Source of the DNA: a virus
Reading direction: 5' to 3' (one strand)
UHGV virus genome: UHGV-0038887
Length of the DNA: 4,631 nt
The notes under the pieces are model-generated. The model made no database searches. It was given only the letters and a program-made list of their open reading frames with translations, and was not told the origin of the DNA. The position numbers were made by a program, and so were the translations under genes. Positions 1 to 4,631 of the stretch are shown here, piece by piece (position 1 is the first letter of the stretch; every line of letters starts with the position of its first letter).

Positions 1-62
1 TCGTTGTTAATGAGCACGACAATCATGACCGCCAACGACTGGATTCTTCCTTGGTTTATACT

Positions 63-90
63 GGTGCGCATAATGTAAAGTTATGTCAAA
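63..90 (+). other. dif-like Xer recombination site, left prophage junction (attL-like)
   Basis: GGTGCGCATAA-TGTAAAG-TTATGTCAAAA. The 11-nt XerC arm is identical to E. coli dif (GGTGCGCATAA, from memory). The spacer is 7 nt (TGTAAAG) instead of TGTATA, and the XerD-like arm matches TTATGTTAAAT at 9 of 11 when shifted by 1 nt (ungapped 20 of 28 overall). Confidence 0.75.
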
Positions 91-107
91 AGGTGCCAGA
101 TTTGCGA

Positions 108-227
108 TTATAAACGGATACCGCCACGCATTGAGCGGGCTTTAAAGTTCTTCTTATGCGACTTCGCATACTTGCGGAACGAACGGCGGGAAGAACGCTT
201 AGACATACGTCTACGGGAACGAGCCAT
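108..227 (-). CDS. VP8: Small basic DNA-binding protein (VP8/ORF8-like, analogous to phiX174 J), 39 aa
   Basis: Hand translation of the reverse complement of 108-227 gives MARSRRRMSKRSSRRSFRKYAKSHKKNFKARSMRGGIRL then TAA; 17 of 39 residues are Arg or Lys. GGAGG lies 5 nt upstream of the ATG and overlaps the VP2 stop codon. Not in the supplied ORF track, presumably below its length cutoff. Confidence 0.75.
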   Translation of the reverse strand: MARSRRRMSKRSSRRSFRKYAKSHKKNFKARSMRGGIRL

Positions 228-229
228 AA

Positions 230-1000
230 TTACCTCCGATAATTGTTAATCAACTGCTGCTGGAACTGTGAAGGGGGGAAGCGTCCCCCCTTGTTTACTT
301 TCTTCGCCGAATTAGCCTCATGGTCACGCTTATAAGAACTAAGCCAAGTATTAAGCCCGCCGATAAGACCGCCAGAAGAAGCATCCATATTGACACGTGC
401 ACTTTCAGCTCCAACAGGTGTATTCAAATAATCAGCCAGAACCTTGTCCTGAACAGTCTGATATTGAGTTCTAATCCGCTGTGCAGAGCTAAGGCCTGTC
501 TGTGCTTCGATATTAGCTCTCCGACTTGCCTCGGTCAAAATCTGCTGATTGGTCAGATTAGACTGTGTTTTCATGTTCTCAACGTTCTGGAGAGCGGCAG
601 CAGCCTGTGCATCCTTAAGACGTACATCAGCCGCACTATTCGCAATCTGGTTACGCTGCAAAGCAATCTGTGACTCAATACCTTCCTTAGCAACCTGTTG
701 CTGTTGACGCTTCGTTAAGGCATCAAATGCAGCAACGGCAGAACTGACGGCACCAGAAAAATCAGCAGGCTGGGCAGCCTGAATACCTGACGAACTGACG
801 GAACCAAGACCACCGGAACCTGTAACGGCCAGAATCGGGTTAAGGCCAGCTTTCCGTAAATCCTGAACACGATACTGGATACCATTTTTGGCCAAATCCA
901 TCGTAATCTTATTGGCACGGTCAGCCGAAGATTTCGCGGAATGGGCACCAAGAAGAGCAGAACCAATAGCGCCAGCAGCGCCAGCAATTGCACTCCACAT
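230..1000 (-). CDS. VP2: Minor capsid / DNA pilot protein VP2
   Basis: 256-aa ORF directly downstream of the capsid gene. Gly/Ala-rich N-terminus (AIAGAAGAIGSALLGA), a Gln-rich central segment, and an RKAGLNP motif typical of gokushovirus VP2 as I recall it. AGGTGA Shine-Dalgarno 4-5 nt before the ATG. Confidence 0.85.
   Translation of the reverse strand: MWSAIAGAAGAIGSALLGAHSAKSSADRANKITMDLAKNGIQYRVQDLRKAGLNPILAVTGSGGLGSVSSSGIQAAQPADFSGAVSSAVAAFDALTKRQQQQVAKEGIESQIALQRNQIANSAADVRLKDAQAAAALQNVENMKTQSNLTNQQILTEASRRANIEAQTGLSSAQRIRTQYQTVQDKVLADYLNTPVGAESARVNMDASSGGLIGGLNTWLSSYKRDHEANSAKKVNKGGRFPPSQFQQQLINNYRR
271..292. repeat. GC-rich inverted repeat (AAGGGGGGA / TCCCCCCTT, 4-nt loop AGCG) inside the 3' end of VP2
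   Basis: Direct reading: 271-279 is the reverse complement of 284-292, giving a 9-bp stem with a G6/C6 core. It encodes the GGRFPPS segment of VP2, about 45 nt upstream of the VP8 start. Function unknown. Confidence 0.5.
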
Positions 1001-1013
1001 AATTTCACCTCAT

Positions 1014-1036
1014 AAAAAAAGGCCTCCGAAGAGGCC
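1014..1036 (-). terminator. Intrinsic-terminator-like hairpin between VP1 and VP2
   Basis: On the minus-strand transcript: GGCCUC-UUCG-GAGGCC (6-bp GC-rich stem, UUCG tetraloop; plus 1021-1036) followed immediately by U7 (plus A7 at 1014-1020). It sits 15 nt after the VP1 stop and just upstream of the VP2 ribosome-binding site. Confidence 0.6.
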
Positions 1037-1050
1037 AAATGACGAAACGA

Positions 1051-2763
1051 TTAAAAATGGTCAATAAGACCTGGTACAGAGTATACAGGCATGGGCCGCA
1101 CACACTTCAAGTCAAAGAACGCATCCATAATGAACTGGGGTTCGTCCTGTACAGCAAGAACGCGTTTCATCGGTGGATTCTCTTCAATGAATTCCTGATT
1201 CAGTGCAGGAAGAGAGTCGAACCGCTGGGCTAAATGCCACACATCGAGAGATTGCGGGTCTGTGGAACGTAATTTACCAGTAATCTGAGATGGTCGGTAG
1301 CGGTACTCTGCATAACGTTCCTGATAACCAAAAACTTCCTCATCCTTCTCGTTACCTTGTGCATAAATCTCCTTGTTAAAAACAGCCTGTTCGCCCAGAT
1401 GGGCCAGTGCAGGCCAGTAAAAATCAAAACGAGTCAGACGGGAAAACATACGCGGAATACCTTGCTGATAGGTCAAGTCGGCACGAACGCTGACAAGACC
1501 AATCACAAAACAATGCTCAACGAAGGAATGAGAGAAACCACGGTTTACACCTCCTGCAACGCCATAAGCGGCTAAGTTACCCTGTGGGGTGGAGTCGGTA
1601 GTAGCGGAGTTCTGGAGAACGGGGTTCACATTAATATCAAACGTACCAGAACCAAGATACTCGGGACGCTGTACACGGGCATCCGGCGAAATAACGCCAA
1701 AATGGGAGCGGATAATCTCAATATAACGAGTACCACCGCGAGCATCACGCTCAAGCAGCCGCTGAAGCTGGAACGCCTGACGAAGCGAATTGATTGTCAG
1801 ATTATCAACAACCTCACCGCCAGACTGCTTCAACTTAACGGGCGGATTTCTTTCATCAAATCCGGCAACCGCATAAGACAACGCACCTTCATCACCAATA
1901 GTAACAGGTGGAAACTTCCAATTACCTACACGATCCGTAGATAAATACATTTGAGAAGCCCCAATGTCATCATATGCAGAATTGGGCTGCGTACCCATAA
2001 CCAATTTATAGGGGTCGGAAAGACCAACAGAACCATTACCAGAAAAACCATAAGTCTTAAAGCCTAAACCACCTGGATAGCTGGGATATTCCAGACTGTA
2101 AGACGGTGGAACGCCAAGAGCAATCTCAACGCCTTCACCTTTCTGAGGCCATGGAAGGGCACTGGTGAAATAATCATGACGTTTTGCACGCTTACGCAAC
2201 GGAAAATTTGCAAGACCTGTTTCCGTCTCATCACCAAGCGGAAGCGGGGCGGAATTAATCAGGTTTTCATCACGATACCATTCGTTATAAATCAGGTTGT
2301 ACGCGCGAAACGGCAGAGCGCTCACACTGATACCTTCAATACCTGTGGGAACGCCAAAATAATCGGCAAGGGAACCTACAGGGAAACCGCCAGAAGGGGC
2401 TTTAATCTGCGGGATAAGATAATCCGTCGAATCACCAGGATTCTTCTGCTCACCGTTGAACTGTTGCCAGTGGTCCCAGACAAGACGATAGGGCACGGAA
2501 AAATACTGGATATCCAGGCGAAGGTTATCCATAAAAGGCACCACTGGCGTGGAGAGACGCGCCAGAATGGACGTCTTCAGATGGAACGTATCACCTGGTA
2601 AAGCCTCATCCAGAAACACGGGAATTAAATAACCTGCATCAAAAGAAGTTTTATAACCGGAACTGCGGTTAAAAACCGAACGCTGAATGTTGGCACTCGG
2701 GATAACTGAAAAATTATGCTGACTTTTTGAATTACTGGGCACTTTGCGACCAAATTTACTCAT
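1051..2763 (-). CDS. VP1: Major capsid protein VP1 (gokushovirus F-like)
   Basis: 570-aa ORF whose length and N-terminal region (…MDNLRLDIQYFSVPYRLVWDHWQQF…) match my recollection of gokushovirus VP1. Strong Shine-Dalgarno (GAGGGGGG) 3 nt before the ATG. Confidence 0.95.
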   Translation of the reverse strand: MSKFGRKVPSNSKSQHNFSVIPSANIQRSVFNRSSGYKTSFDAGYLIPVFLDEALPGDTFHLKTSILARLSTPVVPFMDNLRLDIQYFSVPYRLVWDHWQQFNGEQKNPGDSTDYLIPQIKAPSGGFPVGSLADYFGVPTGIEGISVSALPFRAYNLIYNEWYRDENLINSAPLPLGDETETGLANFPLRKRAKRHDYFTSALPWPQKGEGVEIALGVPPSYSLEYPSYPGGLGFKTYGFSGNGSVGLSDPYKLVMGTQPNSAYDDIGASQMYLSTDRVGNWKFPPVTIGDEGALSYAVAGFDERNPPVKLKQSGGEVVDNLTINSLRQAFQLQRLLERDARGGTRYIEIIRSHFGVISPDARVQRPEYLGSGTFDINVNPVLQNSATTDSTPQGNLAAYGVAGGVNRGFSHSFVEHCFVIGLVSVRADLTYQQGIPRMFSRLTRFDFYWPALAHLGEQAVFNKEIYAQGNEKDEEVFGYQERYAEYRYRPSQITGKLRSTDPQSLDVWHLAQRFDSLPALNQEFIEENPPMKRVLAVQDEPQFIMDAFFDLKCVRPMPVYSVPGLIDHF

Positions 2764-2813
2764 AAACCCCCCTCGGGAATCTGACTAAATTATAAACAAA
2801 CCACTGTATAAAC

Positions 2814-2900
2814 TGACACCTTTTTACAGGCTTCGTGGGAGCCGCCTGTAAGTTTCGGTGTCACCTGGCACAGTTACATCAAGTAGGACACTGTGCCAGG
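2814..2900. repeat. Tandem stem-loop module in the VP3-VP1 intergenic region
   Basis: Perfect 11-bp inverted repeat CCTGGCACAGT (2864-2874) / ACTGTGCCAGG (2890-2900) around a 15-nt loop. Immediately adjacent is an interrupted hairpin: TGACACC (2814-2820) pairs with GGTGTCA (2857-2863), and TTACAGG (2824-2830) pairs with CCTGTAA (2845-2851), around a 14-nt loop. No U-run follows on the coding strand. Confidence 0.6.
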
Positions 2901-2908
2901 CTGCAGGG

Positions 2909-3421
2909 TCAGGAGCCGTCTGCAGGTTTCGCGGGTTCAACACCCGCATCTGCTGAATTATTCACATCAGCACCGGAACGCTCCCGCGGGGACGCCGGAG
3001 CAGGACTCGACTCGCGAACGCTGACGCGTTCGGTCGCCGACTCCTCTCCGCCGCTCAATAATCCAAGCTCACGCGCTTTACTCCAGTTCTGCGGGTCACT
3101 CATCCACTCAACGTACTGCTTAACGTTGTTACCAAACATCGAGCGAATCGTGGACGGCAGGCTGTTAAAGTCGTCGTTAACGTCGTCAATTAAAGCCATT
3201 GCGTCCACATAATCAGTAATCGCAGAGGCATCGTAAAATTCACCACGCTGAGCACTGGTAAACACTGTCGTATCTCCCGTTCTTATCGCACGCTCAACAA
3301 TCTTGTTAACATCGCACTCATCGCGGAAATGCTGCTGGGTCATCGTAGGCTCTGTAAACTCGATGCCGGGCGACGGCGGCGGGTTATAACGGGTATGAAA
3401 CTTAGGCTTCGATGTACGCAT
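2909..3421 (-). CDS. VP3: Putative internal scaffolding protein (VP3-like); start uncertain
   Basis: ORF between VP5 and VP1 with an acidic, Ser/Pro-rich low-complexity C-terminus. The track ORF runs to 3511 (200 aa), but that first ATG has no Shine-Dalgarno and would overlap VP5 by 110 nt. The ATG at 3421 (MRTSKPKF…, 170 aa) has GGAG about 10 nt upstream and overlaps the VP5 stop by 20 nt. Assignment is by position and composition, not a recognised motif. Confidence 0.6.
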   Translation of the reverse strand: MRTSKPKFHTRYNPPPSPGIEFTEPTMTQQHFRDECDVNKIVERAIRTGDTTVFTSAQRGEFYDASAITDYVDAMALIDDVNDDFNSLPSTIRSMFGNNVKQYVEWMSDPQNWSKARELGLLSGGEESATERVSVRESSPAPASPRERSGADVNNSADAGVEPAKPADGS

Positions 3422-3671
3422 CTTCCATTTTCTCCAGGAACGCCGGACTGGCATCACAAACATAAACGCGGTCAATATCGACCGGAACCAGCTGCTGGTC
3501 CACAAAGTCATAAGCAGTCACACGGTGCAACGAAAAATCAACACGCTGCATACGATTACAGAACGCGTGCAGATTGCCTTTCGCAATACCATCATGCTGG
3601 GCCATAAACATAAAAACATCAGCATTAATCAGCTTGTCATGAATTACATAAACTGCATCAGAGTGAGCCAT
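3402..3671 (-). CDS. VP5: VP5-like small protein (proposed role in DNA synthesis/packaging, by analogy to phiX174 C)
   Basis: 89-aa ORF immediately downstream of VP4, with its start overlapping the VP4 stop by 14 nt and AGGAAG upstream of the ATG. Size and position match gokushovirus VP5. Confidence 0.7.
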   Translation of the reverse strand: MAHSDAVYVIHDKLINADVFMFMAQHDGIAKGNLHAFCNRMQRVDFSLHRVTAYDFVDQQLVPVDIDRVYVCDASPAFLEKMEDAYIEA

Positions 3672-4521
3672 CTTCTAACTTCCTCATCATTCGCTGGAAT
3701 TTAACCAGATTAAACTTATCCATATCCTGTAAGCGCCACGGGTCCAGTATATTTGCATTCAACTGGCGACACTCTTTATTCTGCTGCAACTTTTCCAAAT
3801 CACAGCCTGATAATAACTTGTCATAATAGCGGGGCGGTTTTATCTGACGACCACCACGACCAATACACGCATCTGAATTAACTATGTCATCGTAATATTC
3901 CATAAAAAAATCATAACCAATACCGGGTCTGTTACTCATGGCAGAAAACTCGGGGATACGGTCTCCGTAATGCTCCGAAGCACGGGAACCGGTGACTTTT
4001 TTAACACAGTATCGCGCCACGTAAGCAGCCGACTCAAAACTAAAAGCAGCAACAACAGACCAGCCAAAAGTCCAACATCTCTCAAGAAGCGAAGACCTAT
4101 ATAAATTAAATCTTCCAGCCTTGTGTAATGTCTTATCCGGAAAATCATAACCAAAAATAATCGCATGATAATGCGGTCGTTCTAATTTAGAACCATATTC
4201 ACCACAACCAAAAAATCGAATTGAAATATCATCAACAGCCAAAGACTTACGCAAACGCTTCATAAAATCAGTGAAATGTTTACGTACAAGAGAACCATTT
4301 TCAGGCAAATTCTCAGGGGAATAAGTCAGAGTGATAAAACAATTGTAATCATGCATGTGGGCTTCATGAACGCAACGGGTAGCCCAGTCACGAGAATGAG
4401 CAAGACGGCAACCGATGCACTGACCGCAGGGCAACTGGATGAATTTAGCGCCACGTGACGGCGTGAAAAAAATCTTTCCCGATGGCATCTGGTACGCGTT
4501 TAAAGGACGAGTACAAGCCAT
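3658..4521 (-). CDS. VP4: Replication initiation protein VP4 (HUH rolling-circle endonuclease)
   Basis: Rolling-circle Rep motifs: motif 1 CFITLTY, motif 2 HYHAIIFG (HUH), motif 3 YVARYCVKK with YxxxY catalytic tyrosines; also an N-terminal CGQCIGC cluster. Preferred start is the ATG at 4521 (MACTRPLNAY…, 287 aa), which has GGAGGTG 6 nt upstream. The track ORF start at 4563 (301 aa) has no Shine-Dalgarno and lies inside the dif XerC arm. Confidence 0.92.
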   Translation of the reverse strand: MACTRPLNAYQMPSGKIFFTPSRGAKFIQLPCGQCIGCRLAHSRDWATRCVHEAHMHDYNCFITLTYSPENLPENGSLVRKHFTDFMKRLRKSLAVDDISIRFFGCGEYGSKLERPHYHAIIFGYDFPDKTLHKAGRFNLYRSSLLERCWTFGWSVVAAFSFESAAYVARYCVKKVTGSRASEHYGDRIPEFSAMSNRPGIGYDFFMEYYDDIVNSDACIGRGGRQIKPPRYYDKLLSGCDLEKLQQNKECRQLNANILDPWRLQDMDKFNLVKFQRMMRKLEDGSL

Positions 4522-4554
4522 GACACACCTCCAGAAATCAAGGAGGCACCTCTT

Positions 4555-4582
4555 AGTGCGCATAATGTATATTATGTTAAAT
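4555..4582 (+). other. dif site (XerC/XerD), right prophage junction (attR-like)
   Basis: AGTGCGCATAA-TGTATA-TTATGTTAAAT matches E. coli dif (GGTGCGCATAATGTATATTATGTTAAAT, from memory) at 27 of 28 positions. The only mismatch is position 1 of the XerC arm. Same orientation as the left site. Confidence 0.85.
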
Positions 4583-4631
4583 CATGTCTGAGTGATGCGA
4601 AGTGCTTTTCTGGTAGTCGTTATTCGTTCAG

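Follow-up and report, generated by a model that had tools for sequence, protein, structure and literature searches.

Gokushoviruses residing as prophages in enterobacteria were described by Kirchberger and Ochman (2020, eLife 9:e51599; PMC7062461), who reported about 95 of them, with a size range of 4,316-4,692 bp, and resurrected the type phage, Escherichia phage EC6098 (MT185428). Integration requires XerC, XerD and the phage dif motif (PMC7062461). For EC6098 it was abolished by each of the deletions ΔxerC, ΔxerD, ΔdifC, ΔdifD and ΔdifCD; xerC could be complemented, xerD could not, and the exact mechanism is called unresolved by the authors (PMC7062461). Lysogenic colonies of EC6098 contained a mixture of occupied and empty sites and the integration is reversible (PMC7062461). 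Infectious virions and lysogeny of E. coli have been demonstrated for EC6098 alone (PMC7062461). The prophage class, its att sites and its dependence on XerC/XerD are thus already known (published in 2020; PMC7062461), and for EC6098 the genus has also been assigned and the capsid structure solved. Microviridae residing as proviruses are also found in Bacteroidetes, i.e. the Alpavirinae-type proviruses (Krupovic and Forterre, 2011; PMC3091885), for which Xer-type integration was proposed (PMC3091885, PMC7062461). These differ from the element described below in subfamily, host phylum and gene content.

The element and its chromosomal locus

The window, i.e. the whole stretch of 4,631 nucleotides that was analysed, very probably (at roughly 93%) contains an intact enterogokushovirus prophage, a small circular ssDNA phage, at E. 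coli dif. A gokushovirus genome of 4,492 bp is bracketed by two direct dif-type sites at 63-91 and 4555-4582. Their start-to-start distance equals the size of the circular genome (4,492 nt), which falls within the published range. The borders are as follows.

1..62, no strand: left host flank, intergenic, directly 3' of hipA, matching E. coli 07-4299
63..91, plus strand: attL, hybrid dif-like site (11+7+11; the 28-mer at 63-90 is GGTGCGCATAATGTAAAGTTATGTCAAA)
4555..4582, plus strand: attR, the working chromosomal dif (AGTGCGCATAATGTATATTATGTTAAAT; 27/28 against E. coli dif)
4583..4631, no strand: right host flank, 100% identical to 3091-3139 of the E. coli 07-4299 locus

With EC6098 the element shares the six genes and their order, the size class, the site, the orientation and the lack of an integrase, as well as a near-canonical dif by VP4 and a variable dif-like site by VP8. 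The features that define the class were all found: at most one mismatch to dif by VP4, a variable spacer and XerD arm by VP8, the six-gene order, a genome of 4.3-4.7 kb and a gokushovirus VP1 near that of EC6098. The nucleotide identity to EC6098 is 87.7% over 84% of the window, and the prophage of E. coli C5 is about 93% identical to the window; among the members compared, both values lie below the 95% used for clades in PMC7062461. Taking about 95% genome identity as the assumed species criterion, membership of the same species as EC6098 was rejected: the two belong to the same genus but to different lineages.

Positions 1-62 are identical to 3001-3062 of the E. coli 07-4299 locus, where hipA ends at 2986, and this left-flank context is common to E. 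coli C5 and the source contig. When 1-62 was joined to 4555-4631, the reconstructed empty site matched the dif locus of E. coli 07-4299, which lacks the prophage, in 138 of 139 positions, with a single dif, hipA on one side and a fimbrial operon on the other. The earlier note had proposed that the flanks should adjoin around one dif in a strain lacking the prophage, and had regarded flanks made of phage sequence as fatal to its reading; the flanks proved to be E. coli chromosome, rejoined in thousands of genomes. They were matched in 4,142 of 5,426 complete E. coli genomes, only seven of which carry such a prophage, in all seven cases between hipA and the fimbrial operon, while empty single-dif sites number thousands in E. 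coli. The window adds one more case of a prophage that is rare among complete E. coli genomes (about 0.1%). The enterobacterial host suggested by the same note could be narrowed to E. coli: the whole window recurs at 100% identity on a contig of the E. coli assembly GCA_012754475.1, which is absent from the table of PMC7062461, and the NCBI naming of the proteins is that of E. coli. Its statement that such prophages had been reported in Enterobacteria is borne out by PMC7062461.

Microvirus genomes are circular and are frequent contaminants, and the 14 identical bases common to both sites could mislead an assembler, so that a circular phage genome linearised at a dif-like site and mis-joined to host DNA has to be considered. 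However, the identical 4,631-bp sequence is found from junction to junction, with host genes on both sides, in an NCBI contig of 75 kb and in an independent Logan assembly, and it also lies on a metagenome contig with both host flanks. Homologous prophages occur at the same spot in the seven finished E. coli chromosomes, and attL and attR differ from each other as recombination predicts. In view of the empty-site reconstruction and the host-flanked independent assemblies this artefact was rejected, its probability being negligible.

The two attachment sites

The claim that two directly repeated dif-type sites form the borders, the right one nearly identical to E. coli dif, holds to the base: attR matches in 27 of 28 positions, and attL is real in its context. 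Read without a gap, attL (63-90) matches E. coli dif in 20/28 positions, which taken alone is the upper edge of the chance range (best dif match 15-20/28 in 200 shuffles of the window). Its XerC arm, however, matches in 11/11 positions (10-11/11 for the phage-site reading overall), and its XerD arm in 9/11 with a 7-bp spacer (63-91) versus 4/11 with a 6-bp spacer. Moreover, attL and attR lie on the same strand and share an identical 14-bp core. For these reasons attL was accepted as a genuine site despite its 20/28. A second dif-like attP was not found inside the window, where the other dif matches reach only 17/28, the modal value of the shuffles.

In the table of PMC7062461 the 28-mer of attL is printed for clade D as its 'phage dif-site', and the pair of 28-mers in the window is the exact pair given there for clade D, e.g. 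for E. coli C5. In its make-up attL combines a host-type XerC arm (GGTGCGCATAA) with a phage spacer (TGTAAAG) and a phage XerD arm (TTATGTCAAAA), whereas in attR a phage-type, A-first XerC arm precedes the host spacer TGTATA and the host XerD arm. Position 1 is the sole base that separates the host from the phage XerC arm, and it is polymorphic among hosts: empty sites are overwhelmingly G-first, and A-first is rare (at least four empty sites). In every prophage examined attL is G-first and attR A-first, the A at position 1 of attR being preceded by CTT in 8/8. The crossover falls within the shared GTGCGCATAATGTA, so that attL and attR are both host/phage hybrids, a refinement beyond PMC7062461.

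A free counterpart is offered by Microvirus mar4 (MZ089750), a circular, unintegrated genome from marmot faeces that aligns with 92% of the window at 86.8% identity. Its only attP lies between VP8 and VP4 and has identical TGTAAAG and TTATGTCAAAA, but the XerC arm is G-first and not A-first.

Genes, hairpins and intactness of the copy

The genes are ordered VP4-VP5-VP3-VP1-VP2-VP8, all on the minus strand and collinear with the EC6098 annotation. They are listed below by coordinate, together with two intergenic hairpins.

108..227, minus strand: VP8, 39 aa, basic, putative DNA-binding protein (phrog_10695, 7.6e-10)
230..1000, minus strand: VP2, DNA pilot/minor capsid protein, 256 aa (phrog_8693 pilot protein, 9e-17)
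1021..1036, minus strand: intrinsic-terminator-like hairpin in the VP1/VP2 gap, GGCCTCTTCGGAGGCC then T7 (consensus match)
1051..2763, minus strand: VP1, major capsid protein, 570 aa (Pfam Phage_F, 1.8e-180; phrog_514, 1e-214)
2864..2900, minus strand: conserved VP3-VP1 intergenic hairpin, viral strand CCTGGCACAGT-GTCCTACTTGATGTA-ACTGTGCCAGG
2909..3421, minus strand: VP3, internal scaffolding protein, 170 aa (Pfam Chlamy_scaf, 8e-34)
3402..3671, minus strand: VP5, small non-structural protein, 89 aa (Pfam Phage_ORF5, E=0.0014, below the curated cut-off)
3658..4521, minus strand: VP4, rolling-circle replication initiator, 287 aa (phrog_942, 2e-112; Pfam REP_ORF2-G2P, 1e-20)

The earlier note had read a complete gokushovirus gene set, and six intact genes with family matches and collinearity with EC6098 agree with this. 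Its reading would have failed had VP1 and VP4 lacked homology to Microviridae; besides the Phage_F and phrog_942 matches, VP1 aligns with the 566-aa major capsid protein of PDB 8DES (E=0) across residues 1-570. The amino acid identities to EC6098 amount to 95.8% for VP4, 94.9% for VP8 (dN/dS 0.10), 91% for VP5, 85.5% for VP1 and 72% for VP2, the last being 99.6% identical to its counterpart in E. coli C5. For VP3 the ATG at 3421 was taken as the start; the open frame reaches 200 aa, and the homologue of E. coli C5 has 170 aa in the RefSeq annotation. VP4 contains the motifs FITLT, HYHAIIF and YVARYCVKK and is preceded by GGAGG 6 nt 5' of its ATG (4521). An alternative VP4 start at 4563, giving 301 aa, falls within the XerC arm. 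An integrase or recombinase was not detected by Pfam or PHROG in sense or antisense: the six genes match capsid, scaffold, pilot, Rep or small-protein families only, and Pfam gave no match for the four longest antisense ORFs.

The hairpin at 1021..1036 presumably acts as a terminator. The VP3-VP1 intergenic region has a folding z of -3.9. The stems of its hairpin are exact in eight IMG/VR microviruses with about 53% (VP1), 34% (VP3) and 39% (VP4) identity to the proteins of the window, and the hairpin is present in 68 GenBank microvirus records and in Microvirus mar4. Its loop ACTTGAT matches the phiX174 origin AACTTG/ATATT (nick at the slash). This hairpin, with ACTTG/AT in the loop, may be the viral-strand origin of gokushoviruses, previously unannotated.

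It could be argued that the prophage is a defective or domesticated remnant of an old integration that has lost excision and virion production. A free circular copy of the exact lineage is lacking in IMG/VR (zero matches to the predicted attP), the short metagenome contigs of the lineage are integrated copies, and of the four prophages that were resurrected one, EC6098, plaqued on E. coli K-12 and served for the experiments (PMC7062461). Against this, none of the six ORFs is truncated and all evolve under purifying selection (dN/dS 0.02-0.27), and the HUH and double-tyrosine motifs of Rep, the Shine-Dalgarno sequence, the VP3-VP1 hairpin and both att sites are intact. Positions 62-898 recur at 99.5% identity in another sequence with a different host left context. 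The divergence from C5 is mosaic along the genome, which implies ongoing phage recombination, and the rarity (7/5,426 genomes) and patchiness are those expected of a mobile, unstable element. A remnant is consequently regarded as improbable, and we infer that this particular copy is active. Virion production and lysogeny of the intact prophage would likewise be supported by its intact genes and the purifying selection on them.

The value of the case lies in confirmation, as a reading of the sequence without tools had the element, its borders, the class of mechanism and the host right. To what was known are added the hybrid nature of both att sites, a 29-bp attP resembling that of VGJφ, mosaic recombination between lineages and a conserved hairpin with a φX174-like nick motif. 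Possible uses are the engineering of gokushovirus replicons and the prediction of which microviruses are capable of lysogeny.

Proposed route of integration and comparison with other Xer-exploiting elements

In the proposed mechanism, the double-stranded replicative form would contain one dif-like attP, located between VP8 and VP4. With no phage integrase, XerC/XerD of the host would bring this attP together with the chromosomal dif and recombine them, with the crossover inside the shared GTGCGCATAATGTA. XerC would catalyse the exchange of one strand pair, and replication would complete the Holliday junction, as in VGJφ. The resulting attR, 27/28 canonical, would be able to go on resolving chromosome dimers, and the same XerC route taken backwards would lead to spontaneous excision of the prophage, as the reversibility of this route implies. 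The phage spacer and that of dif (TGTA followed by AAG and by TA, respectively) are homologous only on the side of the XerC arm. With a spacer of 7 bp whose match to dif (TGTA) is confined to the XerC side, an exchange by XerC alone is the most likely, and the sequence suggests this chemistry.

A different chemistry, in which XerC and XerD exchange strands in two steps or XerD acts first as in TLCφ, is rather unlikely, though far from negligible. The attP of EC6098 has a spacer of 6 bp (TGTATA) that is equal to that of dif and an XerD arm of 7/11, so that a complete exchange is possible there, whereas the attP of the window has a 7-bp spacer (TGTAAAG) with 4 bp of dif homology and an XerD arm of 9/11. 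Towards the XerD arm the latter spacer reads AAG where dif has TA, so that a second exchange by XerD would give mismatches. The loss of integration in ΔxerD (PMC7062461) is in line with a two-step exchange, but XerD is also structurally required in XerC-only systems (PMC4246890). In the published table the prophages of the TGTAA[A/G]G type always have the phage spacer by VP8 and the host spacer by VP4; the swapped arrangement, which would occasionally be expected from heteroduplex segregation, is seen in none of the roughly 50 prophages of this type in that table. Nor was a XafT-like additional gene found in the window (ORF list, Pfam, PHROG).

Tentatively, and with the odds somewhat against it, enterogokushoviruses may use two Xer strategies: XerC-only integration and excision of the VGJφ kind in the lineage of the window, and a complete or XerD-involving reaction in the EC6098 type. 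If so, the attP of a microvirus would have come by convergence to resemble that of filamentous Vibrio phages, and the supposedly 'bacterial' dif in lysogens would be a phage/host hybrid.

CTXφ and TLCφ likewise enter dif by means of the host's XerC/XerD. CTXφ folds two inverted attP sites of its ssDNA into a hairpin, attP(+), and integrates irreversibly; this type was rejected for the window, in which no second site rises above chance (17/28). In TLCφ the whole spacer is homologous to dif, the XerD arm is defective and the element itself encodes the activator XafT; this model was rejected since the spacer of the window differs, the XerD arm matches in 9/11 and an extra gene is absent. Phages of the VGJφ class have a single 29-bp dsDNA attP without spacer homology by the XerD arm, and their exchange is by XerC only, resolved by replication and reversible (PMC4246890). 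The window shares with VGJφ one double-stranded attP (about 29 bp) comprising a XerC and a XerD arm, a spacer homologous to dif solely next to the XerC arm, two Xer sites left after integration, a functional dif that is kept, probable reversibility and the lack of an integrase. XerC-only catalysis was demonstrated for VGJφ and is deduced from sequence for the window. VGJφ belongs to the unrelated filamentous Inoviridae of Vibrio and integrates at dif1, whereas the window holds a microvirus. The element appears to work like VGJφ without being its relative.

Integration site and host

The interpretation put forward in the earlier note, a gokushovirus gene set enclosed by two directly repeated dif-type sites, is accurate, and the coordinates that it gave proved to be exact. 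The two sites, both read on the plus strand and in direct orientation, are the following:

4555-4582, plus strand: right dif-type site (attR, on the VP4 side), AGTGCGCATAATGTATATTATGTTAAAT, 27/28 to E. coli dif
63-90, plus strand: left dif-type site (attL, on the VP8 side; 28-mer, ungapped), GGTGCGCATAATGTAAAGTTATGTCAAA, 20/28 to E. coli dif

In 200 shuffles of the window the best match to the 28-bp dif was 15-20/28 per shuffle, against which the 20/28 of the left site alone is borderline. The left site is real by its arms and by the core that it shares with the right one: its XerC arm is perfect, introduction of a one-base gap gives an 11+7+11 site (63-91) with an XerD arm of 9/11, and a 14-bp identical core is common to both sites.

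The flanks were found to rejoin around a single dif, as had been predicted. Joining 1-62 to 4555-4631 gives a 139-mer that matches the chromosome of E. coli 07-4299 at 138/139 positions, where this empty site is situated between hipA and a fimbrial operon. Both flanks belong to the host chromosome rather than to the phage, so that an artefactual linearised circle is ruled out. The anticipated enterobacterial host is E. coli: contig DABDDE010000026.1 (assembly GCA_012754475.1) matches all 4,631 bases at 100% identity, and NCBI labels the matching proteins E. coli. The Logan assembly of run ERR1010218 is likewise identical to the whole window, as is one metagenome contig, both host flanks included. 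Matches to the flanks were obtained in 4,142 of 5,426 complete E. coli genomes; the prophage is present at the locus in only 7 of the 5,426, always in the same position and orientation.

Metagenome contigs extend these observations. Contig Ga0233370_1000023 (L018) is 99.5% identical to the window over 62-898, with a different host context on the left. In this contig about 2.8 kb (211-2979) lie between hipA and the dif-like site. The insert encodes a 450-aa SIR2-like protein (Pfam SIR2_2, 4e-26; PADLOC candidate defence system PDC-S25, 2e-82) and fragmented ORFs read as remnants of IS transposases (no Pfam match in the one that was scanned); no dif-like site was present at its hipA-side junction. 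Two ENA contigs, L014 (ERZ27287548) and L017 (ERZ27287542), both terminate 64-65 nt past the right end of the window. Counted from where attR begins, the ends are one assembler k-mer (141) away, the pattern left when an assembly graph branches at dif. This pattern is suggestive only of occupied and empty (or otherwise occupied) dif alleles coexisting in the samples concerned.

Gene content and intergenic structures

Six uninterrupted full-length genes, all on the minus strand, are present between the sites:

VP4, 287 aa, minus strand: replication initiator; phrog_942 2e-112, Pfam REP_ORF2-G2P 1e-20
VP5, 89 aa, minus strand: sub-threshold Phage_ORF5 match only
VP3, 170 aa, minus strand: Chlamy_scaf 8e-34
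VP1, 570 aa, minus strand: Phage_F 1.8e-180, PDB 8DES E=0
VP2, 256 aa, minus strand: pilot-protein PHROGs
VP8, 39 aa, minus strand: phrog_10695

The Microviridae homology that the earlier note expected of VP1 and VP4 is therefore evident from their Phage_F, 8DES and phrog_942 matches. VP4 has kept the rolling-circle motifs FITLT, HYHAIIF and YVARYCVKK. Two starts can be considered for this protein. The ATG at 4521 gives the 287-aa RefSeq form, which is favoured because GGAGG is found six bases before it. The ATG at 4561-4563, which falls within the XerC arm, would give the 301-aa form annotated in the GenBank record of EC6098, the type phage of Enterogokushovirus, and is devoid of a GGAGG-type signal. 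No integrase, repressor or other family was detected with Pfam in the sense ORFs or the four longest antisense ORFs, and hidden integrase or repressor genes on the plus strand were rejected on the latter result. Rfam returned zero RNA families at E<=1 on both strands of the window.

Every gene is under purifying selection, with a dN/dS of 0.02-0.27 in comparisons of the window with EC6098 and with the E. coli C5 prophage. Divergence from the latter is mosaic over 230-4521: VP2 and VP4 are 99.6% and 98.3% identical in amino acids (dS 0.06-0.09), as against 88.6% and 83.1% for VP1 and VP5 (dS 0.65-0.77). This points to recombination between enterogokushovirus lineages. Taken together, the intact genes, the purifying dN/dS, the mosaic recombination and the occurrence of the lineage in a second host context suggest that the phage is active and mobile and speak against a remnant in decay.

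Three structures were noticed outside, or at the variable end of, the coding sequences:

2864-2900, minus (viral) strand: VP3-VP1 intergenic hairpin, perfect 11-bp stem, 15-nt loop
1036-1021, minus strand: strong intrinsic-terminator-like hairpin, GGCCTCTTCGGAGGCC then TTTTTTT, between VP1 stop and VP2 start
271-292, plus strand (scores as terminator): G6/C6 palindrome, AAGGGGGGAAGCGTCCCCCCTT, inside the variable 3' end of VP2

The VP3-VP1 intergenic region folds at z=-3.9. The hairpin is shared by the free circular relative Microvirus mar4. Its stems are exactly conserved, always between VP3 and VP1, even in IMG/VR microviruses (L019-L026) whose VP1, VP3 and VP4 have identities to the window proteins of no more than about 53, 34 and 39%. 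It also occurs in GenBank, in 68 microvirus records whose sources are soil, springs, faeces, insects and plants. On the viral strand its loop reads CCTACTTGATGTA. The motif ACTTGAT, which occurs once in the window, is the core of the nick site of the φX174 origin, AACTTG|ATATT, annotated at position 4306. Our preferred guess for the hairpin is an origin of the viral strand at which VP4 would nick; alternatively it might be a priming site for the complementary strand. No description of this hairpin in gokushoviruses was found in the full-text literature open to search; a 2022 paper deals with different hairpins in different microvirus clades. The terminator-like hairpin between VP1 and VP2 may dampen expression past the capsid gene, and the palindrome at 271-292 faces the direction in which read-through from host hipBA would enter the prophage in antisense.

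Hybrid attachment sites and the phage attP

The attachment sites of eight prophages were compared with those of EC6098 and free mar4. The VP8-side site of all integrated copies has the host-type G as its first base and host sequence upstream, and continues with a phage spacer and XerD arm; this spacer and this arm, as present in the left site of the window, recur in the single attP of mar4. On the VP4 side, phage sequence (CTT) precedes the site in all eight prophages and its first base is A; the spacer (TGTATA) and XerD arm there are those of the host. The great majority of empty E. coli sites start with G: in the top identity band the G-first query gave about 1,200 records, the T-first query 64 and the A-first query 53. 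The A at 4555 is for that reason best explained as phage-borne. Judged from these sequences, attL and attR are both phage/host hybrids, with the crossover within GTGCGCATAATGTA. In the published prophages a near-canonical dif adjoins VP4 and a variable dif-like motif adjoins VP8 (PMC7062461). Since both sites are hybrids, it is a simplification to label the VP4-side site the 'bacterial' dif and the other the 'phage' dif, as that paper does. For two of these prophages, OLC1558 and VREC0615, the 'bacterial' site is given as AGTGCGCATAATGAGGCGTTATGGTAAA or GGTGCGCATAATGAGGCGTTATGGTAAA (PMC7062461 Supplementary file 1). Neither is a canonical dif, and a further Xer-exploiting element may lie in tandem at these loci.

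Among the matches listed, at least four empty sites are A-first, full-length and exact, and T-first sites also exist. That the A-first sites are excision scars was rejected, since excision by the same exchange would restore the G-first host arm; a polymorphism of the host at position 1 explains them better.

On the circle, of 4,492 nt, the predicted attP junction consists of CACCTCTTAGTGCGCATAA followed directly by TGTAAAGTTATGTCAAAAGGTGCC. A search of IMG/VR with this attP, A-first or with the first bases omitted, gave no match to a free circular form of the exact lineage. A metagenome scan yielded one contig, an integrated copy in another host context. ENA metagenome contigs of 4.7 and 3.6 kb with identical proteins were rejected as circular genomes, because they contain host flanks and are thus integrated copies.

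The phage XerD arm, when read on the viral strand, provides a TTGACA upstream of VP4, so that integration would part a -35 box from the rep gene and might permit lysogeny without a repressor. However, an acceptable -10 is missing at 16-18 nt from TTGACA, the hexamer is absent from EC6098-type and PSS-15-type attP sites, and promoter-like sites number 5 in the window vs 5.9 in shuffles. This promoter uncoupling was rejected as unsupported.

Exchange reaction and comparison with known elements

About 95 such prophages of 4,316-4,692 bp with the same six-gene order have been described (Kirchberger and Ochman, eLife 2020; PMC7062461). Supplementary file 1 of that study gives exactly the two 28-mers of the window for clade D, which includes E. 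coli C5; the source assembly accessions are absent from it (compared by accession). C5 is also the closest prophage among complete genomes (about 93%). The nearest phage records are mar4, a circular genome recovered from marmot faeces (identity 86.8% across 92% of the window), and EC6098 (87.7% across 84%); judged by the 88% identity to the latter the element is outside the EC6098 species. Resurrected EC6098 failed to integrate in ΔxerC or ΔxerD hosts, as did phages lacking one or the other arm of the dif motif, and its lysogenic colonies always included empty-site cells, which implies that integration is reversible (PMC7062461).

The phage spacer of the window lineage has 7 bp, of which only the four beside the XerC arm agree with dif. 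VGJφ has a single 29-bp double-stranded attP, the spacer of which lacks dif homology beside the XerD arm; XerC alone carries out the exchange, replication resolves the junction and excision is XerC-mediated (PMC4246890). A VGJφ-like, XerC-only exchange would accordingly suit the attP of the window lineage, and on sequence grounds we give it a probability of roughly 0.5-0.6. The main alternative is a complete reaction of XerC plus XerD. If heteroduplex segregation followed such a two-step exchange, swapped spacers would be expected in some prophages; none of the approximately 50 in the published table that have a TGTAA[A/G]G spacer shows them (PMC7062461 Supplementary file 1), which indirectly supports the XerC-only exchange. 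The EC6098 attP, with a 6-bp spacer identical to dif and an XerD arm of 7/11, may behave differently.

With respect to the other Xer-exploiting phages, the CTXφ model was excluded, as it needs two inverted sites in single-stranded DNA and the window has no second dif-like site above chance, and TLCφ is a misfit in spacer, XerD arm and gene content. The window attP fits the layout of VGJφ closely, although the element is unrelated to that phage. In all features that can be read from DNA it agrees with the Enterogokushovirus prophages and with Xer-exploiting integrative elements in general. The phenomenon, the att sites and the class of mechanism have all been published and are already known.
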